In this document: positions 7,872-63,928 of the stretch, one piece after another
Position numbering within the stretch: the first letter of the stretch is position 1
Layout: every line of letters starts with the position of its first letter
UHGV virus genome: UHGV-0293664
Strand: one strand, 5' to 3'
DNA length: 64,000 bases
Source: a virus
Program-made: the position numbers and the translations under genes
The notes under the pieces: generated by a model
Seen by the model: the letters and a program-made list of their open reading frames with translations, nothing else
What the model was told of the DNA's origin: nothing
Databases searched by the model: none

Positions 7872-7874
7872 GTG

Positions 7875-9595: not shown

Positions 9596-10015
9596 ATGCC
9601 ACAGGAAGAAATGATTTCCTACGAAATCATCTACGAGCCTGACACTAAAGATGCTCACGGTGAGTGGATGAGTAAAGACACCATCAAAAAGGCTAAAGAT
9701 AACTGGGACGCAGCATACGCCGCAGGCCTAGTTTCTGAAAACCTTTTTCACTTGACCTCTACAGATGCTTTCACCATTGAAAAGACGTGGATTCAAGAAG
9801 AGTTTGATGTTGTAGTGATTGGCACTGAGCAGGTCATCAAGGCTGGCTCTTGGGTTGCTAAAGTTAAATACAATAATCCTGAATTATGGGAAGCTAAGAA
9901 GGCTGGCATTGTTGGTGGCCTAAGCATTCAGGCAACAGGTAATGTTGATGAAGAAACTGGTGAAATTACCAACGTAAACTTCGGGATCAGTGTTGTAGAA
10001 GAGGGCAATGAATAA
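9596..10015 (+). CDS. head morphogenesis protein (possible prohead protease)
   Basis: Between portal and scaffold-like gene; start trimmed to the ATG at 9596 after GGGGAA, because the track ORF 9440..10015 overlaps the portal 3' end. Confidence 0.3.
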   Translation: MPQEEMISYEIIYEPDTKDAHGEWMSKDTIKKAKDNWDAAYAAGLVSENLFHLTSTDAFTIEKTWIQEEFDVVVIGTEQVIKAGSWVAKVKYNNPELWEAKKAGIVGGLSIQATGNVDEETGEITNVNFGISVVEEGNE

Positions 10016-10992: not shown

Positions 10993-11012
10993 GACATTAA
11001 CGGGGGAAATAA

Positions 11013-11402
11013 ATGATTACCGCTCAATATTCTGATATCGTGCTCGGCAAAGTTGATTCTAGCGATGCTGGCTACAATTTTAAAGAGATGGAAATTACAC
11101 TGACAGAGCACCATCATGCTGGCACTGTTGTAACAAAAATTGGCACTATCGCTAACGATGATGGCTCAGATGTTTATGGTGTTCTTGTAGACCGAGCTCT
11201 GGTAAAAGATGCAGGAAAAGTTCATCTGGCTGAGCCTCTGCAAACAGGTCAGAAATATAAACTGGTTGTTGCAGTTCACGGTGTTACCTTTGCAAAAGAT
11301 AAGCTGCTAGGGTCTAACGGTGAAGCAGCTAAGCAGGCTGTTCTTGAAAAGCTGGAAGCTCTGGGTAACAAAGTTCACGTCCAGACTCTTGGTGAAGAGT
11401 AA
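11013..11402 (+). CDS. head decoration-like protein
   Basis: 129-aa ORF immediately upstream of the capsid candidate with strong RBS and highly biased codon usage; call by position only. Confidence 0.35.
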   Translation: MITAQYSDIVLGKVDSSDAGYNFKEMEITLTEHHHAGTVVTKIGTIANDDGSDVYGVLVDRALVKDAGKVHLAEPLQTGQKYKLVVAVHGVTFAKDKLLGSNGEAAKQAVLEKLEALGNKVHVQTLGEE

Positions 11403-11449
11403 GCCCTAAATAGTTCGGGAAATATTTAAGTTTTACTTTGGAGAAATAA

Positions 11450-12460
11450 ATGATTACTCGTAAAGATGAATTTGGCATTGTTGATTTAGGTGCTACTCTG
11501 GACCTTGTTCCGCGCCAATTCCGACTGATTACCGGTATGGATCTGTTCGAAACCCGTCTCGGCACCTCAACAATTGCTCAGATCGAGCGTGTTGATGAAG
11601 TCGTAACCGACATTCCGGCACGCCGTCGTGGTGGTGAGCGTAACTACGTTGGTAGTGAACGTGCTCAGGTTAAAAACCTGAACATCCCGTTCTTCCCTCT
11701 GGACAAAGGCATCACCGCAGCAGATGTTCAGAACTTCCGTCGTTACTTCACTCCTGATGCTCCGAAAACTGTTCAGGACGTAGTAACCCGCGTTGTTCGC
11801 CGTATCCGTGTTTCTCATGAAGCACTGCGTGAGAAAGCGCTGTTCCAGGCTATTCTGGGTAAATCCTATGCACCTGGTGACACAACCTGTCAGTATGACT
11901 ACTACACTCTGTGGGGTGTGACTCAGAAGTCTGTTGAGATTGACCCTGCAAAAGCAGATCAGGATCCGATGGAGGTTCTGGAAGAAGCTCGTCTGCACAT
12001 CGCGCTGCAAGCTGGCGATAACGCAGCTGGTTATCGTATTGTAGCCCTGTGCTCACCAGAGTTCTTCAGTGCTATTACCCATCACCCACTGGTAGAACTG
12101 GCATACACCTATTACGGCTCTGCTCAGGAACCTCTGCGTCGCCGTCTGGGTGCAGGTGGTCAAGACAGCGTATACCGTGTGTTTGAGCATAAAGGTATCA
12201 CCTTTATCGAAGATATCTCTGGCAATATTCCTAAGAAAGAAGCTCGCATTCTGCCGATGGGTATTGATCAGATGTTCCAGCTGCACTTTGCTCCGGCAGA
12301 TGATGTTAACGAAGCAAACACTCCAGCACAGGAACTGTACATGTGGTATAAACACTCTGCATACCTGCGTGAAGAGAAGATTGAATCTGAAACTTCCATG
12401 CTGGCAGTTAACACCCGTCCAGAGCTGGTTGTTAAAGCAACTCTGAAAGCTGGTGGCTAA
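11450..12460 (+). CDS. major capsid protein (candidate)
   Basis: 336 aa, strongly biased high-expression codon usage, follows scaffold and decoration-like genes, followed by a strong terminator. Confidence 0.5.
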   Translation: MITRKDEFGIVDLGATLDLVPRQFRLITGMDLFETRLGTSTIAQIERVDEVVTDIPARRRGGERNYVGSERAQVKNLNIPFFPLDKGITAADVQNFRRYFTPDAPKTVQDVVTRVVRRIRVSHEALREKALFQAILGKSYAPGDTTCQYDYYTLWGVTQKSVEIDPAKADQDPMEVLEEARLHIALQAGDNAAGYRIVALCSPEFFSAITHHPLVELAYTYYGSAQEPLRRRLGAGGQDSVYRVFEHKGITFIEDISGNIPKKEARILPMGIDQMFQLHFAPADDVNEANTPAQELYMWYKHSAYLREEKIESETSMLAVNTRPELVVKATLKAGG

Positions 12461-12484
12461 TCACTGATGTGATTCATCCCATAT

Positions 12485-12513
12485 GGGGAGGGGGTTCTCC
12501 CCTCCCCTTTTTA
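12485..12513 (+). terminator. strong intrinsic terminator after the capsid gene
   Basis: GGGGAGGGGG-ttct-CCCCTCCCC then TTTTTATTT. Confidence 0.75.
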
Positions 12514-12540
12514 TTTATTAGGGTTTACCAGGAGTGTCCC

Positions 12541-13389
12541 GTGAAGAGAGCTGTATATCCAGTCGAGTATGATCCTCTATTAAGAGTTTTCAACAATCAG
12601 TTAAGTTTTTATCAATTTTTAGCACAATATAACCCAGAAATCAATGTTGGTTTATCAGCCCTGCTGCCACCAACAGAATTCGTTATCGGCAGTGTTCACT
12701 ATCCGTGCAGAACGATTGTAGACTTCTTCGAGAAGATTGCAAAACATACAGGACTGCCAATTGATCCTGGTATTTCAACTATCCGTATGGGTGTTATTCT
12801 TCTGTTCTTCACAGAGAACCTTGATGAAAGCACTTTAACACTGCAAAGCGGGGATGTCAATATCACACTCACCCCGTCAGTGTTTAAAGAGGTAGATGCT
12901 GCTTTCCAAGTTTCCGTGGCAGAGGGCCATCTATGGGACCCTGTAGGGATGCCTAAAAAAGTGACCATAAACGATGAGCAATGCAATATTGTTTATGAAG
13001 AAGATACCCAAACCTTCACCATTGAGTGGCCTAAGAAACGTTCTCAGGTTGTAAATCTTGGACTGGTCTCTACGATAGCTCCACCGCCTGAACCAGAGCC
13101 GGAGCCGCCTGTAGGTCCTACTGAACCTGGTGGTGGTGGTGAAGAATCTCAAGGTCCGACTGTACCTGAGGAAGGCACTGAGCAGGATCCTGAACAGGCA
13201 CAAGAATCAAGATCTTCTCGCAGTGATGTTGATGCCATACTACAGCAGGCCGCAGCTCTTAACAACGAAGATGACAAAAGTGGTTCAAAAGATGCACTTC
13301 AAGCCTTCGCTAAAGAGTACGGTGTTACCTTAAGTAAGGCAAAAACTTTCCAAAATATGATGAAAGATTTTGAGGCTGCACTGGCATAA
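12541..13389 (+). CDS. hypothetical head/neck protein with Pro/Glu-rich linker
   Basis: GTG start after RBS AGGAG (the track start 12469 lies in the terminator); contains PPEPEPEPPVGPTEPGGGGEE linker. Confidence 0.4.
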   Translation: MKRAVYPVEYDPLLRVFNNQLSFYQFLAQYNPEINVGLSALLPPTEFVIGSVHYPCRTIVDFFEKIAKHTGLPIDPGISTIRMGVILLFFTENLDESTLTLQSGDVNITLTPSVFKEVDAAFQVSVAEGHLWDPVGMPKKVTINDEQCNIVYEEDTQTFTIEWPKKRSQVVNLGLVSTIAPPPEPEPEPPVGPTEPGGGGEESQGPTVPEEGTEQDPEQAQESRSSRSDVDAILQQAAALNNEDDKSGSKDALQAFAKEYGVTLSKAKTFQNMMKDFEAALA

Positions 13390-13398
13390 TTTTGTTAA

Positions 13399-13433
13399 GG
13401 CCCCTTCCAAATCAGGAATGGGGCTTTATTTTT
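13399..13433 (+). terminator. intrinsic terminator
   Basis: ggccccttcc-aaatca-ggaatggggc followed by tttattttt. Confidence 0.6.
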
Positions 13434-13448
13434 ACGAGGTATTTTCAA

Positions 13449-14069
13449 ATGGCATGGTATGAAGATGAAGAGATTATCCCGTCCCCGCCTAACCATGATG
13501 GTGTAGTTGATACCCCAGAAGAACCACCAAAAGAAGATCCTGTACCTCCGGAACCTGATCCAGACCAACCTCTTATTAATATTATGAGGTTGTTGCTTGG
13601 CAATGTTGATGAGGAAACCCTCCCTGACGAGGTAATTAAAACATTCCTTGACATGGAGAAGCTGAAACTAAATTATCCGGCAGACCCTGATAAGCTACCT
13701 CTGCTTAAGTACAATGTGCTTGTGCAGCTTGTGCGGTGGCTGATGATGCAGGAAGTGTCCAGCGGTAATGCAAGTATAACTTCTCGTCTGGAAAAAATAG
13801 GTGATGAGACCATAGAGATTCGTGGTGGATCTGCCTACGCCCAGTGGAAAGATTTCCTTGATTGGCTGCTGGCACACCCAGACTATGTAGACTCTGAGCT
13901 GGATGCTTACAGCAGAATGATTATCATTGGTGGTGTTCGTGTAGACGAAGGAATTCGGGTTAAATTTAATGAAAACAGCAACGGCCCGTTCGATGTCCAA
14001 GGGATTACACCTATCAGTGGTCTAAATAATCAACCTCCTCGCCACCCAAGACGCAAACGCAGTTTTTAA
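13449..14069 (+). CDS. hypothetical neck/head-tail joining protein
   Basis: ATG at 13449 (MAWYEDEE...); the track start 13392 lies inside the terminator hairpin. Confidence 0.35.
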   Translation: MAWYEDEEIIPSPPNHDGVVDTPEEPPKEDPVPPEPDPDQPLINIMRLLLGNVDEETLPDEVIKTFLDMEKLKLNYPADPDKLPLLKYNVLVQLVRWLMMQEVSSGNASITSRLEKIGDETIEIRGGSAYAQWKDFLDWLLAHPDYVDSELDAYSRMIIIGGVRVDEGIRVKFNENSNGPFDVQGITPISGLNNQPPRHPRRKRSF

Positions 14070-14075
14070 AAATTG

Positions 14076-14104
14076 TTGCTTTTGATGTATCTTTGTGGTA
14101 AAAT
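14076..14104 (+). promoter_or_regulatory. sigma70-type promoter with extended -10 (TTGCTT-N17-TGgTAAAAT)
   Basis: TTGCTT 14076-14081; TG 14096-14097; TAAAAT 14099-14104. Confidence 0.5.
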
Positions 14105-14122
14105 ACATTAGTGAGGAATATA

Positions 14123-14587
14123 ATGCTAAAGGTTAAATGTCAAACAAGGTTCAACTTAAAGCGTTTAGATCGCTTTTATAAAGACCTTGTGAAACTTGAA
14201 AGCAAAACAATAACCTACGGCTTTTATGACGAACCTCACCCGTCAGGCTTAAATATGGCAACATTGGCAGCTATTCACAACTTCGGTTGGAACGGGCTGC
14301 CTGTTCGCAATTTCATGGAGACGGCCTTTGCATTTCACAGCACGCAACTGCAAACCTTGACAGAAAAATTGTTGAGGGCTATGGCTAGAGGATCAAGTGC
14401 AGAGGCCGTTCTTAGGCAGATGGGGGACACAGGGGCTAAAGCTATCCAGTTTGTTATTGAGGCTGGTCAGTTTAGTAACCCTACTGTTAGTGAGCAGTGG
14501 GCACAAGAGAAGGGCTTCAACGAGGCTATGCGGCATTACGATGTGCTGCTGGAATCTGCAACCTTTAAAATTGGACAGCAAAAATAA
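14123..14587 (+). CDS. hypothetical head-tail connector protein
   Basis: ATG at 14123 after RBS GTGAGGA; position between capsid and tail genes. Confidence 0.35.
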   Translation: MLKVKCQTRFNLKRLDRFYKDLVKLESKTITYGFYDEPHPSGLNMATLAAIHNFGWNGLPVRNFMETAFAFHSTQLQTLTEKLLRAMARGSSAEAVLRQMGDTGAKAIQFVIEAGQFSNPTVSEQWAQEKGFNEAMRHYDVLLESATFKIGQQK

Positions 14588-14596
14588 GGGGGTTGA

Positions 14597-15022
14597 GTGG
14601 CAGCAGGTTATAAGCTGATAGGAAAGAACAGGCTAATACCCCGTAAAACATTTAAAGGTCGCCACAGAGTGTATAACAAAACAGTTGGTGGTCCTTTTGC
14701 TAACGAGGGGTTAGAACTTGAGTATGAAGAGTTTGATGTCTTAGAGTGTGTTGTGCAGCCGTTGACAGGAAGGGCAGCTAAAGATTACTCCTCTCAAATA
14801 AATCCCGAAGGTGACAGACAGTACGAGGCTTTTACAGTTTACTCCTCAACCAAGTTGTATAGTCCAGATGAAGGAACATATGCAATGGCTGATCAAATTC
14901 AGCTGCCTGACATCCGTGGTGACTTGAAATGGTTTACCGTTTTAAAATGCGATGCATATGTCACGTCTGGTGGTGGAAGATATAGATTTTTTGTGGTAGA
15001 AGAGCCTGAAGGAGAAGACTGA
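14597..15022 (+). CDS. hypothetical head-tail connector protein
   Basis: GTG start after RBS AAGGGGG; 141 aa. Confidence 0.35.
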   Translation: MAAGYKLIGKNRLIPRKTFKGRHRVYNKTVGGPFANEGLELEYEEFDVLECVVQPLTGRAAKDYSSQINPEGDRQYEAFTVYSSTKLYSPDEGTYAMADQIQLPDIRGDLKWFTVLKCDAYVTSGGGRYRFFVVEEPEGED

Positions 15023-15573
15023 TGGAAGCTTTCGAAAAAGTTTTTTCTGATCTTGAAACAACCATTGCTAAGCTTGTCAAGGTTGCCACAGGAAGAACTG
15101 TAGTTCTGGCAGAAAGCTTCACCATACCGAAGCCGGAAGGTGAGTTTGTACTTTTACAAACCTTGGCGATCAATCCCACCACTTGGGAAGATAACGAGTT
15201 CCAAGATGCGGAAGGTAATGCTTACGTAACACACAGTTACACTGTTACCTATCTGTTAACAGCTTATCGTGGCAGGGCATATGCTGCACTTAGCAGAGTA
15301 TTGCAAGCAATAAACCTTCCAATGTTTTATGACAAGTATTTCCCTCTGGGATCGTGCTTTGCCTACTCTAACAATTCAACAATCTCACCTCAAAGAGTGC
15401 CGTTGAATAAGCAGACGTATGAAAATAGGGCCACGGTAATGCTGACATTTAACGTAAGGTTTGTTGAGACAGACATTGGGGCTTTTGAGGATCTTCAGGG
15501 AATTAAGGCTGAAATAACCATACACTTCCCTTCACCCAATTCTGATAAATCGGTTACAGACAGTGGTCAGTAA
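15022..15573 (+). CDS. hypothetical tail completion/neck protein
   Basis: 183-aa ORF with start overlapping the upstream stop. Confidence 0.35.
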   Translation: MEAFEKVFSDLETTIAKLVKVATGRTVVLAESFTIPKPEGEFVLLQTLAINPTTWEDNEFQDAEGNAYVTHSYTVTYLLTAYRGRAYAALSRVLQAINLPMFYDKYFPLGSCFAYSNNSTISPQRVPLNKQTYENRATVMLTFNVRFVETDIGAFEDLQGIKAEITIHFPSPNSDKSVTDSGQ

Positions 15574-15645
15574 TCGTTATAATTGTGTAGTGTAATGATT
15601 ACACTGCGTGTTTGATATCCGTGCACAGATATTAAGAGGAAACAA

Positions 15646-17022
15646 ATGCCATATTTAGATAAAGTGGTAGATGTTACAGTTAACCTCGGAACCCAGCCTA
15701 TTGACACTGTAGGTTTCGAAACCCCGCTGTTCATCGCTATCCACAACAACTTTACTGAGCGAGCTCGCGTGTATGCTGAGCTGGACCAGATGGTGGAAGA
15801 CGGTTTCGCACAAGGCTCTGCAGCGTATGAGTTTGCAGCAAAAGCTTTCGGCGGTGTATTCCCTCCACAATACGTTATAATCGGCAGACAGGCTAAAGAA
15901 AAAACCACTGTAGATTTTAAAGGTATTGCTGCCGCAGCCGATACCGATGTCGTAATGACCATTGCAAAAGGCAGCTACAATACTTCTTTGATAGTGCCTA
16001 TCTCTGGTGGAACAGCTGCAACTCAGATTGCAGAATCAATGAAGACTAAAATCGAAGCAGATGATAACTTGGACGATATCACTGTAGCGGCTGAAGACGG
16101 TGTTATCACCATCACTGGTGACTGTACTGTAGGTTATCATACTGGTAACTATACAATCAAAAATATCGCCAATGCTGAAAAACCTTCTACAGTAGTTGAT
16201 AAGATCAATGCTGAGCGTGACAATTGGTACTTCCTGTGCCATGAAGACCACACCGACATTGAAGCATGTGCTAAGTGGGCTCAGGCCAACTACAAGCTGC
16301 ATGTTTACTCTACTGCAGAAGATGTGACTGGTAAAGATAATAACATCGCCACCAAACTGATGGCTGCACAATATGACAGTGTTGGCATGTACGATCCTCG
16401 TGCTGATAAAGATTTTCCAGAGGGTGGTATCGTAGGCGCTATGGCATCCAACGATCCGTCTTACGGTGACAGCTTGCACTTAAAACAGATGCCGGGTGTG
16501 ATTGCACCATCTCTGACTTTAACTCAGCGTATGGCGATTTGGGAAAACCACGTTAACTTCTACAGAATGATTAACGGTGTTGGCGCTTTCTGGGAAGGTA
16601 AGTGTGCTTCAGGTCAGTATGCAGACGCTATTCGTTTTGCACACTGGATCAAGTTCAGATCTGAAGAATCCATGTTTGGGTACATGCATCGTCGCTCTAA
16701 TATGGGTTTAAGCATGAAGATGTCCGATGATGATCTCCCGGTTATCAAGTCTGTCCTGATGAACAACCCAATCAACACTGGCATTAAGAATGGTGCGATC
16801 CTGACAGGTTTCGACGAAGACAATAATGTATTCTACGACCCGATCATTACAGTTCCTAAACGTGCAGAAATCCCAACCAATCAGTTGGCTGCTCGTGTTC
16901 TGGAAGGTGTGAAAGTAGAGCTGGTGTATAACAACGCCCTGCACTTCGTTCGTATCCGGATCAACGTCCTTCTGGACAAAGTTGGTTCTAAATCCACCAA
17001 TGCTGTTGCAATGACTGAATAA
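15646..17022 (+). CDS. tail sheath-like protein (candidate)
   Basis: 458-aa ORF with high-expression codon bias, immediately upstream of a 157-aa tube-like gene, the chaperone pair and tape measure; order sheath-tube-chaperone-TMP is typical of contractile tails; not motif-verified. Confidence 0.4.
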   Translation: MPYLDKVVDVTVNLGTQPIDTVGFETPLFIAIHNNFTERARVYAELDQMVEDGFAQGSAAYEFAAKAFGGVFPPQYVIIGRQAKEKTTVDFKGIAAAADTDVVMTIAKGSYNTSLIVPISGGTAATQIAESMKTKIEADDNLDDITVAAEDGVITITGDCTVGYHTGNYTIKNIANAEKPSTVVDKINAERDNWYFLCHEDHTDIEACAKWAQANYKLHVYSTAEDVTGKDNNIATKLMAAQYDSVGMYDPRADKDFPEGGIVGAMASNDPSYGDSLHLKQMPGVIAPSLTLTQRMAIWENHVNFYRMINGVGAFWEGKCASGQYADAIRFAHWIKFRSEESMFGYMHRRSNMGLSMKMSDDDLPVIKSVLMNNPINTGIKNGAILTGFDEDNNVFYDPIITVPKRAEIPTNQLAARVLEGVKVELVYNNALHFVRIRINVLLDKVGSKSTNAVAMTE

Positions 17023-17032
17023 GGAAGCCTAG

Positions 17033-17506
17033 ATGGAAACTCAAATTTTAACTCCTTATGCGTATGACCCTAAAAAGGTCAAACTGTATCTGATGCAGCA
17101 GCGTGTCACTGGCTTCGCTGCTGACACCAAGATTGTTGTTTCAAGAAACGAAGACAACATTTATCCCCACGTCGGTGTGGATGGCGAAATGTCTGCAGCT
17201 CTGTCCCGTAACCAATCTGGTGTTATGACTGTATCTTTGCAGAACACTTCTGTATGGAACGCTTACCTTTCTGACTGGCAGAAACAGGCATCGATTACTG
17301 GCCTGGTATTCTTCCCGGTTCTGCTGGAAGGTAGCCAGGGCCCTGGTATTTCCACAATCGGTTGGATCCAGAAACAGCCTGACCTGACTTACGGAACCGA
17401 AGTAGGTCAACTGGACTGGGATATCGGTATTCTGGATGCATGGCTCAACCGTGATAACATCACTGGTGCTCTTACTGGCCTCGCAGGTCTTGCAGGTATT
17501 ATCTAA
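17033..17506 (+). CDS. tail tube / major tail protein (candidate)
   Basis: 157-aa ORF directly before the chaperone genes, followed by a terminator. Confidence 0.4.
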   Translation: METQILTPYAYDPKKVKLYLMQQRVTGFAADTKIVVSRNEDNIYPHVGVDGEMSAALSRNQSGVMTVSLQNTSVWNAYLSDWQKQASITGLVFFPVLLEGSQGPGISTIGWIQKQPDLTYGTEVGQLDWDIGILDAWLNRDNITGALTGLAGLAGII

Positions 17507-17523
17507 GGGCACACTTTAGCATA

Positions 17524-17555
17524 AGCCTCACCTTCGGGTGGGGCTTTTTGCTTTT
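17524..17555 (+). terminator. intrinsic terminator
   Basis: gcctcacc-ttcg-ggtggggc followed by tttttgctttt. Confidence 0.65.
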
Positions 17556-17596
17556 ATGGTTTTGACACACGTTCTTGAATTGCTTGAAAGGTTAAA

Positions 17597-17625
17597 TTGA
17601 CAATGCACAATAATCATGGTAAAAT
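17597..17625 (+). promoter_or_regulatory. sigma70-type promoter with extended -10 (TTGACA-N17-TGgTAAAAT)
   Basis: TTGACA 17597-17602; TG 17617-17618; TAAAAT 17620-17625. Confidence 0.6.
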
Positions 17626-17668
17626 ACACAAATATGGTGCACAACATGACTAATAAGGATGCTATAAA

Positions 17669-18142
17669 ATGGCTATAAACTTTAGACCTACAACAGAGAT
17701 TGATTTAGCAGGGCACAACTTTGTGATCACCCACTGGGGACCGATGAAAGCAATGAAAAACATGCCTAAAATCGGTAAGATTGTGGCTGTCCCGCTAGGT
17801 GCTATCGGCGGATCTATTATCTCAGGCGGTCAGAACATGGCAGAAGTCCTTCCTACTGCTCTGGCTTACCTGTTCCAAGAACTTGATGATAACTCTATTG
17901 AAGAGTTATTTAAAATTTTGTTCGAAGATATTACCGTAGATGGTGTGGATAAGCTTAACCCGGATGTTGTGTTTGCAGGGCATCTGCTGGAGATGATTAA
18001 GCTGGCAGGTAAGGTTCTGGAGGTTAACTACGGCTGTTTTTTCACACAAGACGGTTTAGGAAGCCTTCTGGAGATGTTACAGCAGATGGGTATGATTCAG
18101 CAGGTGAACAACCTGGATCAGACTCCGGAAGAGCAGGAATAA
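17669..18142 (+). CDS. tail assembly chaperone (gpG-like, zero-frame product)
   Basis: 157-aa ORF directly upstream of the tape measure gene; contains slippery heptamer T_TTT_TTC. Confidence 0.6.
   Translation: MAINFRPTTEIDLAGHNFVITHWGPMKAMKNMPKIGKIVAVPLGAIGGSIISGGQNMAEVLPTALAYLFQELDDNSIEELFKILFEDITVDGVDKLNPDVVFAGHLLEMIKLAGKVLEVNYGCFFTQDGLGSLLEMLQQMGMIQQVNNLDQTPEEQE
18037..18043 (+). other. -1 programmed ribosomal frameshift slippery site T_TTT_TTC
   Basis: Heptamer is in X_XXY_YYZ register with the chaperone frame (codons tgT TTT TTC = C F F); the -1 frame is open from here to 18402. Confidence 0.55.
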
Positions 18143-53264: not shown

Positions 53265-53434
53265 TTTTTTGTTACTCCGTTCTGTATCTGTGATAATGAG
53301 AATAGCAAACTGGAGTGTGTGCTGTCAACAACATTTTTTAAGCGTTTTGGGGAAGTTTTTTGAAAGGTGGGTGTAATCACAAGAGGGGGTAGAGTTATTG
53401 AAGGCACAGGCCTCGTTTGAGGCCTTAAAACAGA

Positions 53435-56194: not shown

Positions 56195-56428
56195 TTAATC
56201 TTCGTAAATCAGGATTTCTGCTTTAGGTTTTCGTGCTTTCAGATCCAGCTCTATCCAATGCACCATGGCTGTTTCAAGAAAAACAGCCTGGATGCATCCG
56301 TCCTCAGCGTGCCCTACCAACATAACAAGATCTTCACCTTCGTCATCTGCATCACGAACATACAGAATCTCTCCAGATTCAAAGTCTTTCACAACCTGAT
56401 TGCTGGATAATTTACGAATTTTTGCCAT
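56195..56428 (-). CDS. small protein, possible distant member of the 87-aa paralog family
   Basis: 77-aa ORF immediately downstream of the three paralogs, similar size and acidic character. Confidence 0.35.
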   Translation of the reverse strand: MAKIRKLSSNQVVKDFESGEILYVRDADDEGEDLVMLVGHAEDGCIQAVFLETAMVHWIELDLKARKPKAEILIYED

Positions 56429-56429
56429 A

Positions 56430-56693
56430 TCAGAAACCCTCTAAAAAGCTCTTGTAGAAAACAATCTCAGTGTCCACACCAGTCACAATCTTGTCGTTCC
56501 TGATTTCATCGGTAAGATAGGTGTCAAAACGCAGAACCTGTGTGGTGTTGTCACACATCCACTCAGCTGTGACCATTGCGAAAATCTTAGCATCTTCATT
56601 ATCCGGTGTAAATGTTACCACCTCACCGCATTTAAACTTTTCGATAGGTTGAGTGTTAGCTTTCGGCTCTGCGATAGTGATTTTTGTGGTCAT
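56430..56693 (-). CDS. 87-aa paralog family member 3
   Basis: Identical length (87 aa) and shared pattern with the two upstream copies (cGeVV...VTgvDteI). Confidence 0.45.
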   Translation of the reverse strand: MTTKITIAEPKANTQPIEKFKCGEVVTFTPDNEDAKIFAMVTAEWMCDNTTQVLRFDTYLTDEIRNDKIVTGVDTEIVFYKSFLEGF

Positions 56694-56956
56694 TATTCTC
56701 CTCCTTGTTTTGAATAGCTTGTCTCTCCAAGGATGGTAATTTTGGTATCAAGCTCTGTAACTTTCATGTTTGGTGGCAGATCGTACAACTCCTTATTTTC
56801 TAAATCGAACCCCCACACACAATGTTCTCCTGTTTTGACAATCATAACTATGTTTTGAATGCCGTCTCCGTCGCAACTTACCACGGTCCCACACGGAAAA
56901 CTATCTGCACGCTTTTTGTTCTTCACCTTAGAATTGAATACAATGCTAGTAGCCAT
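56693..56956 (-). CDS. 87-aa paralog family member 2
   Basis: MATSIVFNSKVKNKK..GTVV..GFDL..VTELDTKITILGE aligns with member 1; start overlaps the upstream stop. Confidence 0.5.
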   Translation of the reverse strand: MATSIVFNSKVKNKKRADSFPCGTVVSCDGDGIQNIVMIVKTGEHCVWGFDLENKELYDLPPNMKVTELDTKITILGETSYSKQGGE

Positions 56957-57219
56957 TATTGTTCCTCCACCATAACTTCGCCAAGAATTTCTATGCAGGC
57001 ATCCATTTCTGTAACAACCAAGGTGTGAGGTAGTTCTGCAAACACCTTTCTGAACAGGTCAAATACCCCAACATATATGTTTGCAGGATGTGATTTTACA
57101 ACAAGTGCTGTATTCACATCCCCAAGTTCATCAACAAACATCACCACAGTGCCTGGAGCTACTGAAGACAGATACTTCTTAGTTTTACGGTTTGATGCAA
57201 ATTTTAACTCTGTTGCCAT
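56956..57219 (-). CDS. 87-aa paralog family member 1
   Basis: MATELKFASNRKTKK..GTVV..GVFDL..VTEMDACIEILGE aligns with member 2. Confidence 0.5.
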   Translation of the reverse strand: MATELKFASNRKTKKYLSSVAPGTVVMFVDELGDVNTALVVKSHPANIYVGVFDLFRKVFAELPHTLVVTEMDACIEILGEVMVEEQ

Positions 57220-57234
57220 AAATAATCTCCTCCT

Positions 57235-58716
57235 TTATTTAGCGTACTCGATTAATTCCACAGTTTTCCCAAAGCTCGGGATATAATTTTTATTATACCC
57301 CTCGGTGAGAACCCATAAAGTATCGTACTTTTTCCACTTGTTGTCAACAGCCTTTTGTTCAAAGTTATGCTCAAAGTATAGGTCGGTCAGGACGATGACA
57401 TCTTTTGCATTCGGTATATTGGCATCCAGATACTCGAACACGCAAGCAGCTGTTGTGCCCCATGTTGAGTGGACCTCATAGTTGATCATCTCATCTATGT
57501 TACCGCGAGTGTATACTTTAACCTCTCCAACCTCAGTTGACCAACAGAACATTGTAACCTTAAACTCTTTATACAGATTGCACAATCCGGTGATTTCATT
57601 GAACATTTTCTTTAAAGTTCTTTGAGAGATCGAGCCAGAAACGTCTAAAGCCACCACAATATCTATGGTGTTTTCCGGATTACGACCAGGAACAATAACG
57701 TGCTGGTTCTTGTTTATAGCCCCAACTTTTCGCATTGTGCTGGTCAAAGACCCAGATCGGCGACCAGGTTTTCTGTAGGTCAGTTCAGCCTTTCGTTTAG
57801 ACAACATGCGTTGCTTAATGATATCTATATAGTTGATTACAGGCTTGCCTCTGTTCTTGACAAACTCACGCACCGCCTCAGGGCAACGACCTCCGGAAGC
57901 TTGCATTGCTGCCTCCAGCATGTCACCAGAATCCTGCATGGCCTGATCTTTATCAGATTGGCTGATTACAGGTTGTGGCCGATCATACCCCATAGCCTTC
58001 CCAAGATCATCGCTGGTGCCACCGTTCCCGCTCATGTGATCATCGGTTTGTCGCTTATCTCCTTGGGAGTTATCACCTTTACCGCTCTTACTTTTACCGT
58101 TATTTTGATCTCTTTGCCTATCAAGAACTGCATAGACGTTCTCAGCAATCCATCCATGAAACTTCATGTCGCAGTAGCAGCTGGCTAAGAAACCAAAAGG
58201 CTTACCTTTTACGAACGTAGTGCTTTTCCCCTTCGGGAAGAAAACACAAGGGGGCTTGCTAAAGTCAACCACAAGACCTGTGTTGATAACGTGATCACAA
58301 GCAATATTGAACAGTTCCGGCTCAAAGCTTTTGCCACGGACCAGGTGATCACAGATAATATGCCCCACCTCATGTGACAGAAGGAAAGCCACCTCTTTCA
58401 CAGATTTGGGGGAATAGAAAACTTCAGCCATCTCAAACTGCTCTCCAGTTAGAGAGGCCTTGAGAATAGCCTTGCGTTCATCAGCCAACCCCATAATGAA
58501 CTCAGGACTGTAATAGATGCGTTTATGGTCGGTTGCCATGGTGGAGCACCATGTGTGGTTTTCTACGAACTGTAACCCTGACAGCAGTGTGCCATAAAAC
58601 GGCAGCTTTTCAAGGAGATACATACGTGCAGCCTGTAACATTCTCAGGGCATCATCTTTCTGTGAGGCAATGATTTCTGAACTTCTGCTATCCATTAAAA
58701 CTCCAGAAGGGGCCAT
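57235..58716 (-). CDS. VWA-domain protein with N-terminal HExxH metallopeptidase-like domain
   Basis: HEVGH zinc-binding motif at N-terminus; MIDAS motif VVALDVSGSIS in the C-terminal half. Confidence 0.6.
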   Translation of the reverse strand: MAPSGVLMDSRSSEIIASQKDDALRMLQAARMYLLEKLPFYGTLLSGLQFVENHTWCSTMATDHKRIYYSPEFIMGLADERKAILKASLTGEQFEMAEVFYSPKSVKEVAFLLSHEVGHIICDHLVRGKSFEPELFNIACDHVINTGLVVDFSKPPCVFFPKGKSTTFVKGKPFGFLASCYCDMKFHGWIAENVYAVLDRQRDQNNGKSKSGKGDNSQGDKRQTDDHMSGNGGTSDDLGKAMGYDRPQPVISQSDKDQAMQDSGDMLEAAMQASGGRCPEAVREFVKNRGKPVINYIDIIKQRMLSKRKAELTYRKPGRRSGSLTSTMRKVGAINKNQHVIVPGRNPENTIDIVVALDVSGSISQRTLKKMFNEITGLCNLYKEFKVTMFCWSTEVGEVKVYTRGNIDEMINYEVHSTWGTTAACVFEYLDANIPNAKDVIVLTDLYFEHNFEQKAVDNKWKKYDTLWVLTEGYNKNYIPSFGKTVELIEYAK

Positions 58717-58728
58717 TGGCCCCTGTTA

Positions 58729-59718
58729 TTATTTAACGTGTTTGAAAATACCTGCCAACTCGGTCATTGTCATGCGGGTGGTCTTCATAAGATCTGTCAT
58801 AGCTTTCTCCATAATTGGGGATACTACCATAAAGTTTCCTTTAGTGAAACCTTTATTCCAGTCGGTCACCAACAGTGGTTTAAGTCCAGCTCCGAGACGT
58901 TCACCAGTTAAAGCACAACATTTTCGAATGTATGTGCTCTTAAACTGGCTGAATGACAGATCCACTTTCATACCTGCATCGTAGAACGTCTGGCAATAGA
59001 AAGTGTAAGCTTTGGCAATCTCAACATCGTCAGGCAGTGCAGGAACCTCTTCTGTAAGCTCTTCTTCGACCCCTTGAGGCTCTTTTTCCTCTTCGTAAGC
59101 CTGTTGCGTCATCTCTTCAATCTCCTCTACTACAGGCTCGTTTACAATGTCAGAAATGTGCTTGTTGGCTCCACGATTAGCCATGAAGTTTTTAAAATCC
59201 TGCATTGGTGACATATCTTCCTCCCATTCTTCGTCAAAGAGTGCCAGTTTATCCTCTTCCGTTCCATATTGCAAGATGAAATCTTCAAAAGTGTAATCAC
59301 CTTTCAATTTCTCCATACGCTCTTCGCTCAGGTGGAGCATCATCTGCTGGACAATTTTTCGATCAGTTTTGTCTTTAATCAAGACTGCGGTCTTTTTATC
59401 TACCAGACAGTCCTTTAGAGAGTTGCATCTCAACCCTACCACACAACAGTTATCAACCGCATAAGGGCCTTCATCATCTATCCGCTCTAGAGATGGGTAG
59501 AAAGGATTTCCCAGTCCGTTTTCATCCGTGTGCATGTCGAAAGGTATAAGGGTATAGTCGCATACTCCATCTCCTAAAAGTTTTTTACCAAATAGGAGAT
59601 ATTCTTCCCATGACAGGTTGAACTCTATATCTCGTTTCCGTGCATTATTCTGTTTGCGTCTGTATTTTTTGAGCAAGCGCTCTAACTCTTCTGGTGTATA
59701 ATATTTTTCAAGATTCAT
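58729..59718 (-). CDS. hypothetical protein with HNH-like cysteine motifs
   Basis: Start trimmed to the ATG at 59718 because the track start 59784 lies upstream of the predicted minus-strand promoter; motifs ERIDDEGPYAVDNCCVVGLRCNSLK and a second Cys-containing segment near the C-terminus. Confidence 0.35.
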   Translation of the reverse strand: MNLEKYYTPEELERLLKKYRRKQNNARKRDIEFNLSWEEYLLFGKKLLGDGVCDYTLIPFDMHTDENGLGNPFYPSLERIDDEGPYAVDNCCVVGLRCNSLKDCLVDKKTAVLIKDKTDRKIVQQMMLHLSEERMEKLKGDYTFEDFILQYGTEEDKLALFDEEWEEDMSPMQDFKNFMANRGANKHISDIVNEPVVEEIEEMTQQAYEEEKEPQGVEEELTEEVPALPDDVEIAKAYTFYCQTFYDAGMKVDLSFSQFKSTYIRKCCALTGERLGAGLKPLLVTDWNKGFTKGNFMVVSPIMEKAMTDLMKTTRMTMTELAGIFKHVK

Positions 59719-59749
59719 GAGTTGTCTCTTGTGCTCTGTGGGTGGAGAA

Positions 59750-59779
59750 ATCTTACCAAGGGCCTGGGAAGATGTCAAC
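59750..59779 (-). promoter_or_regulatory. minus-strand sigma70-type promoter (TTGACA-N18-TAAGAT on the complement)
   Basis: Plus-strand tgtcaa 59774-59779 and atctta 59750-59755. Confidence 0.45.
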
Positions 59780-59791
59780 CTCAAAAACGTG

Positions 59792-59820
59792 TTGACTTTA
59801 CTCTAAATCCTCGATATAGT
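59792..59820 (+). promoter_or_regulatory. plus-strand sigma70-type promoter (TTGACT-N17-TATAGT)
   Basis: TTGACT 59792-59797; TATAGT 59815-59820; back to back with the minus-strand promoter. Confidence 0.5.
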
Positions 59821-59860
59821 GCACCCATTCGAAAGAAAACTAGCATAGGAGTACTTATTC

Positions 59861-60760
59861 ATGGCAAATCTTAACAGTTTTAGCACCAGGTGGCAACAGG
59901 ATATAACAACCAATCTTTCAGCTGGAGATATCCTTTCTGCAATTTACGAGGCTTTGGATGATAAAGCTACTTCAAGATCGGTTTGTACTAATCCGCTAAT
60001 TCCTATAGTGATGAAGGTAATTGAGCGGAGGTTGGTATCCGGGTCTGATAAGTGGACATACCTTGATAATGGAGGGCATACTTACTCCAACGGATATGTT
60101 GATATAAAAGTGGAATACGCAGTATCATACCGCCGGAGCGGTTCTGTAACTTTCAACTTCTCTGGAGGTTTTCGATCTCTGGCTACTTCACCTTTTGTTT
60201 CCTCAGAGGAGAAGTATGAGCTGCCATTTCTTTGGATGATGGCTAACGCGACAGGAAAAACCCCCGTTAGCATCCGAGTAAAATACAACTACAACGGATC
60301 TAGTAAGATCTATGCCGAAAGTGCCTCAGCAAGTTTTTATTTTGTGATGGGGGATGGAATCCTCAAACATATAAAGATGTGCGATATGCATGATGTTATA
60401 AATGAAGTGACTGATAAGAATGTTCTAGTGAAAGACCTCAATAATTTTTATACACCTGGAGACTATTACGTCAACCGCCCACTGTGCATCTTTAATGCCG
60501 CACACCCTTTAGGTGAGTATTTGATCGCCAATAGCGATATTGCCAATAACCGCTTCGAGGTAGCAAGAGTACAGAATGAGGTATTGACATCTTGCAAGAG
60601 CGGTGATAAGTTTACCGAAGAAGAGATGGGTGTTTTAGAAATGATGGGATATAAGTGTAGCCTTTGGGTAGATGAGGTGTTTAATGACTGCATCTATGGA
60701 CAGGATATTTACCCGTTAAAGAAGTATACTGATTCCAGTTTAATTTACGCGGAGATTTGA
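59861..60760 (+). CDS. hypothetical protein
   Basis: 299-aa ORF after RBS AGGAG; first gene of a coupled plus-strand block. Confidence 0.45.
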   Translation: MANLNSFSTRWQQDITTNLSAGDILSAIYEALDDKATSRSVCTNPLIPIVMKVIERRLVSGSDKWTYLDNGGHTYSNGYVDIKVEYAVSYRRSGSVTFNFSGGFRSLATSPFVSSEEKYELPFLWMMANATGKTPVSIRVKYNYNGSSKIYAESASASFYFVMGDGILKHIKMCDMHDVINEVTDKNVLVKDLNNFYTPGDYYVNRPLCIFNAAHPLGEYLIANSDIANNRFEVARVQNEVLTSCKSGDKFTEEEMGVLEMMGYKCSLWVDEVFNDCIYGQDIYPLKKYTDSSLIYAEI

Positions 60761-61035
60761 CTATGATGAAGTCATGTGGTAGTGTATATTATGTTGGTGA
60801 GAATGTTCAGGCAGACAGCGTGTGGAAATCCATTAAGTCTACCACCGACGATGCCTTCTTGAGCGGGTTATGTTTTCCCAGCCCTGGGGACACTCTCCCT
60901 TACCCTGGAGATTTTGTTGTCAACAAGATGGACGGTTATACCGTGTGCCTGATGGTTGAAAAAATCTTTTTAGACACTAGACACAATCACCGTCTTGTGT
61001 TAAAATTTCAAGAATGTAAAATGACAATTGCCTAA
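60757..61035 (+). CDS. hypothetical small protein
   Basis: 92-aa ORF overlapping its neighbours. Confidence 0.35.
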   Translation: MTMMKSCGSVYYVGENVQADSVWKSIKSTTDDAFLSGLCFPSPGDTLPYPGDFVVNKMDGYTVCLMVEKIFLDTRHNHRLVLKFQECKMTIA

Positions 61036-61405
61036 GGAGGCCTTGCCTATGTCTAAAGTTACGTATCGTGCAGCTATTTACTGCAATGAACACCCAATCA
61101 ATAATGATGGTCACTGCCTTTTTAAAGAAAATCAGTTGGGCTGTATTGTCCTCCCTGATGAAGGGAAAGGTTATCTGATTGCATTGACAGGGTTTGAGCC
61201 TGAAGCTTTGGAAGCCAATCTGGACTACCTGGTAGAAGAGGGTGCTGCAGACCTGGTTGCCAATGGCCTCTCCATAAACCTTGACGAAGTGGAGCGCTTC
61301 ATGGGCAATTACCGTGTAGTGCGTGAGTTTACTATCGAGGTGGAAACTCCAGAGTGGGGTAGCCCTGAAACTAATACCGAAGAAAAAGAAGAGGAGGTAG
61401 AATAA
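61028..61405 (+). CDS. hypothetical acidic protein
   Basis: 125-aa ORF after RBS AAGGAGG. Confidence 0.4.
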   Translation: MPKEALPMSKVTYRAAIYCNEHPINNDGHCLFKENQLGCIVLPDEGKGYLIALTGFEPEALEANLDYLVEEGAADLVANGLSINLDEVERFMGNYRVVREFTIEVETPEWGSPETNTEEKEEEVE

Positions 61406-61662
61406 TGAAAGTGCAGATTTTGACTAATGCCGAGAAGATGTTTATTGAAGATACACCTTTTGAAGCTGGTGAGCTACAGTTCGTTTATTTTGTTGACTTA
61501 GATAAGGTGTTCCCTGCACTGAATCTGGGTCTGGATGAAGTTCCTCATAAGGTTTTGTGCCAAGTTGTTCGTGCTTTAGCGGCAGATGGGGAGTTCCACA
61601 CTCTTGAAGATATCCAGACCTACGGGTATCTTGAACTACAACGAGAAGAAGAGGTGGATTGA
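61405..61662 (+). CDS. hypothetical small acidic protein
   Basis: 85-aa ORF after RBS GAGGAGG, coupled to the upstream gene. Confidence 0.4.
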   Translation: MKVQILTNAEKMFIEDTPFEAGELQFVYFVDLDKVFPALNLGLDEVPHKVLCQVVRALAADGEFHTLEDIQTYGYLELQREEEVD

Positions 61663-62045
61663 TAATGGCCCGATGGAAGACAACGGTTGACCTGCATGAT
61701 CAGTGGTTAGGACGCATCACTGAAGACGGGAAACTAGTAGAGTGGGACAATAAACATGTCAGCGAGTTGGCAAGTATTGTGGCTGGCAAGTTACGCTCCA
61801 AGTTCCCTGAACAACTGGATCCTGATAATTCAAAGTTCGATCCTGAGTTGGAGGATGTTGTATACTACTTCGATACCGTGGATGACTACGATGCGTGGTT
61901 TGCAGCACGGGAGCTTTACCCACAAGGCTCCGCTATGCGTCAGATGGAAGAAGATTATCCTCCGTGCGAGCAATTCAATAGCGCAATGACTTGCCTCTAT
62001 GATTGGGCAGATAAGAACCTTGTCTGGATCCGGACTGCATTCTAG
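61659..62045 (+). CDS. hypothetical protein
   Basis: 128-aa ORF overlapping the upstream stop. Confidence 0.4.
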   Translation: MIMARWKTTVDLHDQWLGRITEDGKLVEWDNKHVSELASIVAGKLRSKFPEQLDPDNSKFDPELEDVVYYFDTVDDYDAWFAARELYPQGSAMRQMEEDYPPCEQFNSAMTCLYDWADKNLVWIRTAF

Positions 62046-62051
62046 CAGGCT

Positions 62052-62354
62052 GTGGCAAGGATGCCACTTAAAAGAGTAATAAGCATGTTATACCAGAAAC
62101 ACAAACTTTGTGCAGAAAAAGAGTTAAATTTTGACAAAGTTATCCACAGATATTGTTATGGGAAAACCGGAAGACAACTAAGAAGGTGTACCCCAACATT
62201 CTTTCACCCCAGTAGACGGCTAAGTCCTGAAGAAGCAACAGCAGAAAGGGTTGCATACAACTGGGAAGTTGTGTACGATATTGACAGATCCGATGTGGCA
62301 TCTGTTTTGGAAAACTTTGAAAACACTTACACACAAGTAGAGGACTTTTACTAA
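62052..62354 (+). CDS. hypothetical protein
   Basis: 100-aa ORF. Confidence 0.35.
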   Translation: MARMPLKRVISMLYQKHKLCAEKELNFDKVIHRYCYGKTGRQLRRCTPTFFHPSRRLSPEEATAERVAYNWEVVYDIDRSDVASVLENFENTYTQVEDFY

Positions 62355-63538
62355 TGTCAAGAAACGTATTTGAAAGTGGTCAAATCACTGTCCGTGAGTT
62401 GCCAGCTATCATTCAGTTTGCCCAGCGTCATAACCGATCTGTCCTGATTTTAGGACCAATGGGCGTGGGGAAGAGCCAGGTGATGAAGCAGATTGCCGAT
62501 AATATGTTCGGTGAGCGAGATGACAACCTGGTTGACGTGCGACTGTCAGATAAAGATCCTGCCGACTTATCTGGGCTACCTATCCCTGTAGAAGCGGATG
62601 GAACTACACGTACAGTGTTTGCAATTCCAGAATTCTGGCCTGCAGATCCAGACTGGAGCGGGATTATCTTTCTGGATGAGCTTACTCATGCAGATAACTA
62701 TCTACAAAAGGTTGCAATGCAGATTATGCTCGACCACAAGTGCGGCACCTATGCATTCCCTAAAGGCTCTGTTTTTGTGGCTGCGGGTAACCGTTCTACA
62801 GATGGTGCGGTTCTTTCGGCGCTCGAAGCCCCTCTGGCTAACCGTTTTATCATTGTAGAAGTTACAAGCAATGCAGAGGTGTTTATTGAGGACTACGCAT
62901 TCCTTAATGGGGTGCATTCCTCTGTAATTGGGTATCTGAAAAGAGTTCCATCAGCTATCGATAATTATGAGGCTATGGCTGAGATTAATTGTCCATCTTT
63001 TGCCACACCGCGATCTTGGGTTGCTGCATCTGACATCTTGCACGATTTTGACAGCGGTATTATTTCTGACGCTATGGCCCGTGTTCTTCTGCAAGGTGCT
63101 ATTGGTCACACTGCAGCGGTAGAGATCTGGACCTACCACACCAAGAAACGCAACTTACCGGAAATCGGTCGGATTATGGCAGGGGGTTGCAAAGAATACG
63201 TAGGTCCTAAACAGCCAGACATTTTGTGGATTCTTGGATCTGAAGGTTGTATCGCTATTCGTAATATGATGGAAAATGCAAGTATCTCCGACGAAGATCT
63301 TGTCAGCTGCGTGGCAAACTTCCTCGATTTCCTTTGGGAAAACTTCAAAGACGAGAACCGAGATTTTGTATTCTCAGTCTTTATGGCGATGATGAAACCT
63401 AATGCCTTAGGAAATGCCTTGCTTATCGGTAAAGGGCGTGACAAGATTGTTGCTCAGCTGATCAAAGCATACCCAAACCTGATGAAGATTGTAAAAGAGT
63501 TTGGTGAAGAGTTTAGCGCCATTTTGGCTAAAGCTTAA
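62354..63538 (+). CDS. MoxR-like AAA+ ATPase (CobS-like)
   Basis: Walker A GPMGVGKS, Walker B IIFLDELTHA, sensor-like AAGNRS. Confidence 0.65.
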   Translation: MSRNVFESGQITVRELPAIIQFAQRHNRSVLILGPMGVGKSQVMKQIADNMFGERDDNLVDVRLSDKDPADLSGLPIPVEADGTTRTVFAIPEFWPADPDWSGIIFLDELTHADNYLQKVAMQIMLDHKCGTYAFPKGSVFVAAGNRSTDGAVLSALEAPLANRFIIVEVTSNAEVFIEDYAFLNGVHSSVIGYLKRVPSAIDNYEAMAEINCPSFATPRSWVAASDILHDFDSGIISDAMARVLLQGAIGHTAAVEIWTYHTKKRNLPEIGRIMAGGCKEYVGPKQPDILWILGSEGCIAIRNMMENASISDEDLVSCVANFLDFLWENFKDENRDFVFSVFMAMMKPNALGNALLIGKGRDKIVAQLIKAYPNLMKIVKEFGEEFSAILAKA

Positions 63539-63547
63539 GGGGGTTGT

Positions 63548-63928
63548 ATGGCTAAAGTAGGTAAGCGGGGAAACTACCTGGTGGTATTGACCGAGGAGCC
63601 AGAGAAGGAGTACGAATGCAGCTCCACTTGCGTGATCGATATCCGAGAAAAAGATGTAGATGAAATCTGGTTTGAAATATTAGACGCTTGCGACAGCAGT
63701 GATTATTTCTTCATCTATGTCAACGATAAGGCTGGGTTCTTCCATGACGACGGAGAGTTGCCGTATGAAATCTATGAACTTGTAGAGGCTTGCCATCGCG
63801 GAGATGCGGAGTTGTTTGGCCTACGGCTGAAAAGCGGTAAATTCTTCTATCAAGATGAGTGCATGAATCTTCATAACTTTGTAGAGGGAACTTGCAACGA
63901 TGGAGAGATTTTGGCACACTACGATTAA
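63548..63928 (+). CDS. hypothetical acidic protein
   Basis: 126-aa ORF after RBS AAGGGGG, followed by a terminator. Confidence 0.4.
   Translation: MAKVGKRGNYLVVLTEEPEKEYECSSTCVIDIREKDVDEIWFEILDACDSSDYFFIYVNDKAGFFHDDGELPYEIYELVEACHRGDAELFGLRLKSGKFFYQDECMNLHNFVEGTCNDGEILAHYD

Follow-up and report, generated by a model that had tools for sequence, protein, structure and literature searches.

A predicted MoxR-class AAA+ ATPase and a putative zincin-VWA protein, homologues of phage N4 gp24/gp25, encoded in divergent units of an rV5-like Vequintavirus

We analyzed a stretch of 64,000 nucleotides from the virus genome UHGV-0293664 (hereafter, the window), in which two genes on opposite strands encode a predicted MoxR-class AAA+ ATPase (62354-63538, plus strand; 394 amino acids (aa)) and a protein combining a putative zincin-like peptidase domain with a von Willebrand factor A (VWA) domain (57235-58695, minus strand). 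The 6.8-kb region round the gene pair (57000-63800) shares 95-96% identity with the Escherichia phages rV5_ev147, APECc02 and EmilHeitz (Bas49), the last of which is classified as a Vequintavirus, and it matches 122 public records in all at 90-96% identity, nearly all of them rV5-like; by these matches, the window is an rV5-like Vequintavirus. In rV5 numbering, the ATPase is gp004 and the VWA protein gp012, and the matching GenBank records label them as "MoxR ATPase" or "ATPase" and as "putative metallopeptidase" or "VWA-like domain containing protein", respectively. The pair is thus not new: its genes are already annotated in GenBank and the module has been described computationally, so that the finding as it stands confirms existing annotation and holds nothing unexpected. 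The sequence-only reading is confirmed in its essentials, both ORFs lying where it had placed them. What we add is the equation of the pair with gp24/gp25 of phage N4, a quantification of its genomic coupling, a lineage-specific split of the operon at divergent early-type promoters and a check on the conservation of the catalytic residues.

The longest open reading frame (ORF) of the VWA gene extends to 58716 (493 aa), but its start is probably the ATG at 58695, giving 486 aa, because a GGAG Shine-Dalgarno sequence precedes this codon and the GenBank annotation of Bas49 (486 aa) agrees with it. The sequence-only reading had claimed an HExxH metallopeptidase-like N-terminus and a MIDAS (a site of adhesion that depends on metal ions) of the VWA type for this minus-strand protein, and both are recovered by significant Pfam matches to DUF2201_N ("putative metallopeptidase domain"; E 4.3e-28; score 99.1 bits, cut-off 23.2) and DUF2201 ("VWA-like domain"; E 3.5e-11; score 43.7 bits, cut-off 26.4). 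The putative zinc-binding and catalytic motif is HEVGHIICDH, of the form HExxHx4H (H115, E116, H119 and H124; 58345-58374, minus strand, coordinates verified), and the VWA domain (aa 350-493; 57238-57669, minus strand) bears a complete MIDAS site made up of D358-x-S360-G-S362 (DVSGS, 57631-57645), T421 and D445. In an alignment of 37 homologues, which reach down to 21% identity and include bacterial proteins, H115, E116, H119, H124, A139, D141, D358, S360, G361, S362, G420, T421 and D445 are invariant in all 37, and R319-R320 (57757-57762, minus strand), which belong to a 'T-x-x-R-P-x-R-R' segment just upstream of VWA strand beta-1, are nearly so. The AlphaFold2 (AF2) model of the protein (predicted local distance difference test (pLDDT) 82) has three parts, namely an N-domain, a linker and a compact VWA domain; the N-domain is well predicted, with three short strands followed by the HExxH helix, and the Gly/Asp/Lys-rich, low-complexity linker is predicted to be disordered (pLDDT <50 at 210-235). 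When a profile of the N-domain was compared with the PDB, all 10 matches at E <= 10 were zincin peptidases, including selecase MJ1213 (the best, E 1.2e-3), an M48 peptidase and HtpX (E ~0.013) and BepA; the printed alignments, those with selecase and the M48 peptidase 3c37, place the HExxH of the N-domain opposite theirs. Accordingly worded, "putative zincin peptidase" is a reasonable label for this domain. Phmmer found no match for the VWA protein in the PDB, and none of the PADLOC defense-system models matched it.

The partner on the plus strand displays the full set of AAA+ motifs: Walker A (GPMGVGKS, 62453-62476), Walker B (D108-E109, 62675-62680), sensor-1 (N146-R147, 62789-62794), the arginine finger (R164 in 'ANRF', 62843-62845) and sensor-2 (P219-R220, 63008-63013), all of which are invariant in an alignment of 34 homologues. 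Searches with the single sequence against Pfam, NCBIfam, the PDB (by phmmer) and PADLOC returned matches at the level of the P-loop only (ClpB, ClpC and others), which are uninformative as to class; those from PADLOC were weak (E > 5e-4), and no defense-system model was matched. Its homologues (31-36% identity over ~85% of the length, E ~1e-45), in turn, carry PF07726 (AAA_3), PF07728 (AAA_5) and sometimes PF20030 (bpMoxR), and one of them, P0047 (35% identity), scored above the cut-off for both AAA_3 (31.7 against 27) and AAA_5 (26.9 against 22) when rescanned. A profile of the 34 homologues found its best PDB matches in the AAA_5 modules of Midasin/Rea1 (E 3e-10). In the AF2 model (pLDDT 85), a two-strand insert (strands 75-81 and 84-90) follows helix 2 and comes before strand 3, and sensor 1 is preceded by short strands at ~129-135, so that the predicted model has the features of the helix-2-insert clade. 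The top 18 matches of this model in a Foldseek search of the PDB are NorQ or CbbQ2 (E 3e-8 to 2e-6; template-modeling (TM) score on the target 0.57-0.68), with the MoxR-proper protein CHU_0153 (2r44) close behind; sequence identity to NorQ/CbbQ is only 17-23%, and a helical stretch of ~120 aa at the C-terminus of the window ATPase is additional, with no counterpart in NorQ or CbbQ. We assign the protein to the MoxR class, as a divergent member whose membership by sequence is transitive, because the transitive homology, the profile search and the predicted fold agree, and the sequence-only prediction of a MoxR-like ATPase is upheld by this combination.

Both proteins have their counterparts in phage N4. 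Aligned with hhalign, the window ATPase matches N4 gp24 with a probability of 99.9% (E 1.6e-35) and the VWA protein matches N4 gp25, which has the same DUF2201_N and DUF2201 architecture, with a probability of 100% (E 6e-56), identifying the pair as homologues of gp24/gp25. The likeness extends to the surroundings: rIIA, rIIB and a DNA helicase are encoded downstream of the ATPase gene in both lineages (11360-18050 in the rV5-like locus L001 and 1939-14277 in the N4 locus L090), despite the unrelated morphology of the phages. The differences are that the N4 genes stand side by side on the same strand as members of the middle class, read by N4 RNA polymerase II, whereas in the window they lie on opposite strands with sigma70-like promoters, and that the window proteins are longer (394 versus 352 aa and 486 versus 380 aa), with clade-specific insertions. 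In N4-like phages, the pair is on record as a "putative ATPase, AAA superfamily" and a "vWFA superfamily" protein of unknown function (PMC2784036).

The equation with N4 also bears on the label "CobS/CobT-like", which the sequence-only reading had applied to the pair. That analogy would make the window proteins subunits of a cobaltochelatase, an auxiliary metabolic gene pair as in cyanophages. CobS is likewise an AAA_5/MoxR-clade ATPase and CobT likewise carries a VWA domain. The window pair, however, has no hit to the CobS and CobT families in Pfam or NCBIfam at E <= 0.01, the N-domain of its VWA partner is a putative zincin and not the CobT N-domain, and no chelatase stands among the matches listed in the ATPase fold search or the PDB profile search. 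With this domain content, a chelatase identity is effectively refuted; the label is imprecise, a loose and distant analogy, and the correct reference pair is N4 gp24/gp25.

The coupling of the two genes was quantified from both sides. Among 80 viral loci collected via the ATPase, a DUF2201 gene lies directly downstream on the same strand in 70, or 70 of the 71 that are informative, and 9 of the other 10 end at a contig edge. For the VWA side, the locus searches used N4-like and bacterial subsets of the alignment, the full VWA alignment being too diverse: the ATPase is directly upstream of the VWA gene in 16/16 viral loci collected via the N4-like alignment, and upstream on the same strand in all 73 bacterial loci with upstream sequence (from 80 loci, mostly of sulfur-oxidizing Gammaproteobacteria). 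The adjacent ATPase-then-VWA order is found in 70 viral loci, 16 N4-like ones and 69-73 from bacteria. In the set of sequenced phages, 719 records contain a match to the VWA protein and 821 a match to the ATPase, with closely corresponding counts per host genus (VWA protein/ATPase: Escherichia 215/216, Pseudomonas 104/108, Pectobacterium 26/26, Cronobacter 17/17), a comparison that rests on counts and on 60-row samples. Overall, the module is present in roughly 700-800 of ~50,700 sequenced phage genomes, namely in N4-like podoviruses, all of the rV5 subfamily, some cyanophages and several groups of jumbo phages, and also in bacteria. The domain and pairing matches are not chance, because the domains are matched with strong E-values and the pairing is found again at essentially all of the related loci examined; the coupling is near absolute, close to the limit of what genomic evidence can show, and the co-occurrence expected from the sequence-only reading is borne out. 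In the only informative viral locus that departs from it (L041, 1840-3980), the MoxR-like ATPase gene is followed by a radical-SAM gene instead of DUF2201. An apparent fusion of the ATPase and VWA genes in the bacterial locus L146 proved to be an artifact, produced where a run of N had been masked (translated as XXXX). The idea of a third conserved partner in the phages was likewise rejected, since of the window genes that were compared with those of relatives, none but the ATPase and VWA genes are common across lineages.

Against this background, the layout in the window is a departure in order. The two ORFs are 3637 bp apart on opposite strands, with seven other genes between them, the VWA gene being the second of a leftward unit and the ATPase gene the seventh of a rightward unit, so that neither comes first. 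The strands switch in a 142-bp intergenic region (59719-59860), where the composition skew also flips, and within it lie two back-to-back sigma70-like matches, in keeping with the spacing of about 3.6 kb and the divergent promoter region read from the sequence alone. The leftward match (59750-59778, minus strand) is TTGACA-17-TAAGAT with a TG before the second hexamer, and a relative at 53% identity (L011) and the Seunavirus PVP-SE1 have equivalents, either as matches or by annotation. The rightward one (59783-59820, plus strand) has an UP-like element and takes the form AAAA-N3-TGTTGAC-N17-TATAGT, with TTGACT-17-TATAGT at 59792-59820. A Vequintavirinae early-promoter consensus of AAAA(N3)TGTTGAC has been reported for Certrevirus (PMC7344957), and the start of the rightward promoter, AAAA-ACG-TGTTGAC, is an exact match to its core. 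This 14-mer, AAAANNNTGTTGAC, has three exact copies in the window (53324-53337, minus; 57343-57356, minus; 59783-59796, plus) against 0.10 expected, a number that 0/100 shuffles reached, and all three lie in the small-ORF region, each oriented with the local genes. Both genes are thus probably co-expressed, early or middle in infection, from back-to-back sigma70-type promoters, a timing that we infer from the promoter matches; no transcriptome of an rV5-like phage was found in the literature, and N4 gp24 and gp25 are middle genes (PMC4193335).

The split layout, with a leftward 'anti-sigma factor'-like gene followed by the VWA gene and several small rightward genes followed by the ATPase gene, is common to Vequintavirus (the window, L001 and L010), the Seunavirus PVP-SE1 (gp216 and gp225) and L011, and was seen only in these. 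The adjacent ATPase-then-VWA order, on the other hand, is shared by N4-like phages, bacteria, many phages that are uncultured and relatives of the Certrevirus type (L006, L012 and Pectobacterium phage P7_Pc), and a 42%-identity relative (L008) has four small genes between ATPase and VWA. We therefore read the arrangement in the window as an ancestral ATPase-then-VWA operon that was probably split in this phage, a difference in layout and not in content. The separation of the genes, their opposite strands and the stability of the split across Vequintavirus, Seunavirus and L011 could be taken to mean that the two proteins have become functionally uncoupled in vequintaviruses, each having gained or kept a role of its own, with their proximity a mere remnant. 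That is very improbable, for every split-layout genome examined keeps both genes; the catalytic motifs, checked in the window proteins and the aligned homologues, show that the window copies retain all family-invariant residues; identity is at least 99% for the ATPase, in 110 records, and 95-99% for the VWA protein; one gene without the other was seen only at contig ends and in the single locus L041; and a single divergent promoter region is the starting point of both units.

We propose, with confidence a little better than even and largely by analogy, that the pair constitutes a NorQD-like motor/adaptor complex that remodels, and most likely cleaves, a client early in infection. Cryo-electron microscopy of NorQD has placed one VWA protein on a MoxR hexamer with the VWA finger in the pore (PMC13036017, PMC9976466), with the MIDAS facing the client rather than the ATPase and ATP hydrolysis remodeling the linker between the NorD N-domain and the VWA domain (PMC13036017, PMC9976466). 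NorD is laid out like the window partner, with an N-domain and a disordered linker followed by a MIDAS-bearing VWA domain at the C-terminus, although neither NorD nor CbbO has a peptidase domain. By this analogy, the MoxR-class ATPase would presumably form a hexameric ring on which the VWA domain would dock, as in NorQ/NorD, CbbQ/CbbO and Rea1; the MIDAS metal would capture an acidic residue of the client protein, and ATP hydrolysis would pull or twist the linker of the partner and thereby remodel the client. The remodeling could expose the client to the zincin site, or relieve an inhibition of that site, and the fused zincin domain would then most likely cleave the client, the whole acting as an adaptor-targeted ATP-dependent protease assembled in trans. 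The conserved R319-R320 of the RPxRR segment are a candidate for the element engaging the ATPase, likened to the NorD finger. Should this proposal hold, the arrangement would resemble FtsH, in which an AAA+ ring likewise feeds or positions substrates for an HExxH zincin, here of the M41 family and fused to the ATPase; however, FtsH is a protein of the classical AAA clade, made of one membrane-anchored polypeptide with no VWA domain or MIDAS, making the likeness an analogy with no homology beyond the superfamily.

The same comparisons suggest a non-proteolytic alternative, in which the pair would be a maturation factor like NorQD, CbbQO or CoxDE that remodels a metalloenzyme of phage or host nucleotide metabolism for the insertion or release of a cofactor, with the zincin-like domain serving as a client-binding or metal-handling module. 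NorQ and CbbQ are the closest solved relatives of the ATPase, the MoxR-VWA pairs that have been characterized insert metals or reactivate enzymes (PMC9976466, PMC13036017), and the frequent phage neighbors of the pair include thymidylate synthase, dCTP deaminase and a 5'-3' exonuclease, with ferrochelatase as a neighbor in one bacterium. Yet the invariance of E116 together with the three histidines across phages and bacteria is the pattern expected of a hydrolase and not of a mere metal-binding module; nor does any conserved candidate client gene accompany the pair across the phage lineages compared. We hence consider a maturation role unlikely, and return to the remodeling and probable cleavage of a client as the favored reading.

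Several observations weigh against that reading. Most characterized MoxR-VWA pairs are non-proteolytic maturation factors. The AAA hits of the window ATPase to Pfam are all below the cut-offs (AAA_5 at 16.7 bits against 22; AAA_3 with no hit), so that membership by sequence stands through the homologues and not through the protein's own score. The sequence-profile links of the N-domain to the zincins are weak (E ~1e-3), and among the best matches listed in two PDB fold searches, none was to the N-domain. The VWA domain is compact (~140 aa) and, by the secondary structure of the AF2 model, is without an obvious counterpart of the long NorD/CbbO-type beta-finger insertion that enters the ATPase pore; as no such finger is evident, the mode of docking may differ. 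The promoter calls are consensus matches only, and the operon split could mean a looser coupling in this lineage. Finally, no functional study of DUF2201 or of N4 gp24/gp25 was found in the literature, in agreement with the sequence-only description of such pairs as conserved but uncharacterized.

A further alternative comes from jumbo phages. Iyer et al. (2021) described a pair of a MoxR AAA+ ATPase and a vWA protein with an N-terminal metallopeptidase domain in group 2.2 jumbo phages (PMC7824862) and proposed for it a role in virion assembly and processing (PMC7824862). The domain description matches the window pair, the two being likened by description and not accession by accession, and both window proteins match jumbo phages such as RaK2, vB_EcoM_G17 and fHe-Yen9-04 at 25-29% identity. 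Transferred to the window, the proposal would make the pair an assembly chaperone and processing protease that folds or assembles and trims tail or fiber proteins. There is a precedent in the Acidianus two-tailed virus (ATV), which encodes a MoxR/VWA couple, likened here by description (PMC9964418, PMC7824862); the couple of this archaeal virus lacks a peptidase domain and takes part in extracellular tail growth. The leftward block of the window, moreover, begins directly after a long tail-fiber gene, and the roseophage RPP1 encodes some virion proteins near its gp24/gp25 homologues (PMC4193335). Set against this, the pair lies outside the structural module, in a neighborhood of small early-type ORFs, rIIA/rIIB, a helicase and nucleotide-metabolism genes with sigma70-like promoters, and the N4 homologues are middle transcripts (PMC4193335). 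It is also found in podoviruses, myoviruses and jumbo phages with unrelated tails, and on bacterial chromosomes, next to genes such as those for ferrochelatase (in one bacterium), Lon and SoxYZ, where no virion is built. The early-type context and the bacterial homologues thus fit a virion-specific role less well, and we regard it as possible but improbable for the window pair.

An extension of the NorQD-like proposal, which we advance as a tentative conjecture with the odds well against it, is that the pair represents an unrecognized type of ATP-dependent protease, in which a MoxR ring works with a MIDAS-targeted zincin adaptor and whose early expression in many virulent phages that are unrelated to one another (N4-like, rV5-like and jumbo) would serve to destroy one particular host protein that is conserved, such as a defense or stress factor, with the counterparts in sulfur-oxidizing bacteria acting on the same class of client. 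A trans-acting AAA+/zincin protease, if true, would be a new design among the known ATP-dependent proteases. The module is widespread in phages and bacteria with strictly conserved catalytic residues, and vequintaviruses offer a practical route to it, being genetically tractable E. coli phages (as in the BASEL collection) in which the split layout would allow single knock-outs with less risk of polar effects; the homology to N4 gp24/gp25 would let results be transferred between model phages.

The remaining genes of the two units are mostly small. The six between the promoter region and the ATPase gene (59861-62354, plus strand) encode a 299-aa protein, annotated as 'putative 1-3 fucosyltransferase', followed by ORFs of 92, 125, 85, 128 and ~90-100 aa, the last of which overlaps the start of the ATPase gene by one base. 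The 128-aa ORF (61659-62045) has a homologue in L011 and is the sole one of the six with a homologue among the selected relatives compared. The leftward unit opens with a gene annotated as 'anti-sigma factor' (phrog_3118; 58729-59718, or 58729-59784, minus strand), which has an Srd/endonuclease VII-like N-terminal region and is presumably co-transcribed with the VWA gene. The PHROG labels for it conflict (HNH endonuclease, endonuclease VII, Srd anti-sigma factor, decoy of host sigma70), and it has no match in Pfam; it adjoins the VWA gene in Vequintavirus, Seunavirus and L011 and is annotated in the same way in Bas49 and PVP-SE1. Between its stop codon and the start of the VWA gene lies a GC-rich hairpin, AGGGGCC-AAT-GGCCCCT (58708-58724), and a terminator-like hairpin with a 10-bp stem and a T-run occupies the equivalent position in L011 (6077-6100). 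Speculatively, the window hairpin may be an attenuator or processing site setting the level of the VWA protein, perhaps lowering it relative to the ATPase.

Directly downstream of the VWA gene is a tandem array of small genes (56195-57219, minus strand; 87, 87, 87 and 77 aa), of which the first two are paralogues with 40% identity and the rest are more diverged (14-22%). The copy of AAAANNNTGTTGAC at 57343-57356 (minus strand) lies upstream of this array, inside the 3' part of the VWA gene.

We also encountered several labels that appear to have spread by annotation transfer. The VWA protein is called 'HNH endonuclease' under phrog_1314 and in several RefSeq entries, including those for N4 gp25 (L090, 3165-4307) and PVP-SE1 gp216 (L187, 4042-5478); Pfam finds only DUF2201_N and DUF2201 in the window protein and N4 gp25, and the label appears to be a propagated error. 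One public record names a DUF2201 protein 'DNA repair ATPase', likely also in error. The ~90-100-aa ORF just upstream of the MoxR gene (62052-62354, plus strand) is labeled 'ATPase' (phrog_13164), although its length falls far short of an ATPase domain and neither Pfam nor NCBIfam gives it a hit at E <= 0.01; here too, a propagated annotation error is likely.

In the sulfur-oxidizing Gammaproteobacteria among the bacterial loci (L091-L170; e.g., L102, 9224-9700, L108, 9952-10272, and L146, 7254-8420), a ~380-aa gene without a Pfam hit is often found downstream of the pair (32/70 loci), and soxY and soxZ lie ~3 kb downstream in ~27/80 loci. The clustering of these neighborhoods is noisy because the high-GC genomes yield many spurious ORFs. 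Neither soxYZ nor the ~380-aa gene has a homologue in the phage loci, and their position downstream of the bacterial pair may reflect lineage synteny. Lastly, sixteen 'Campylobacter phage' records (e.g., A141, C15, D1 and A147; host given as Campylobacter jejuni) carry this region with ~99% protein identity to the E. coli rV5-like phages, which suggests that their hosts are mislabeled or that the lysates were contaminated.

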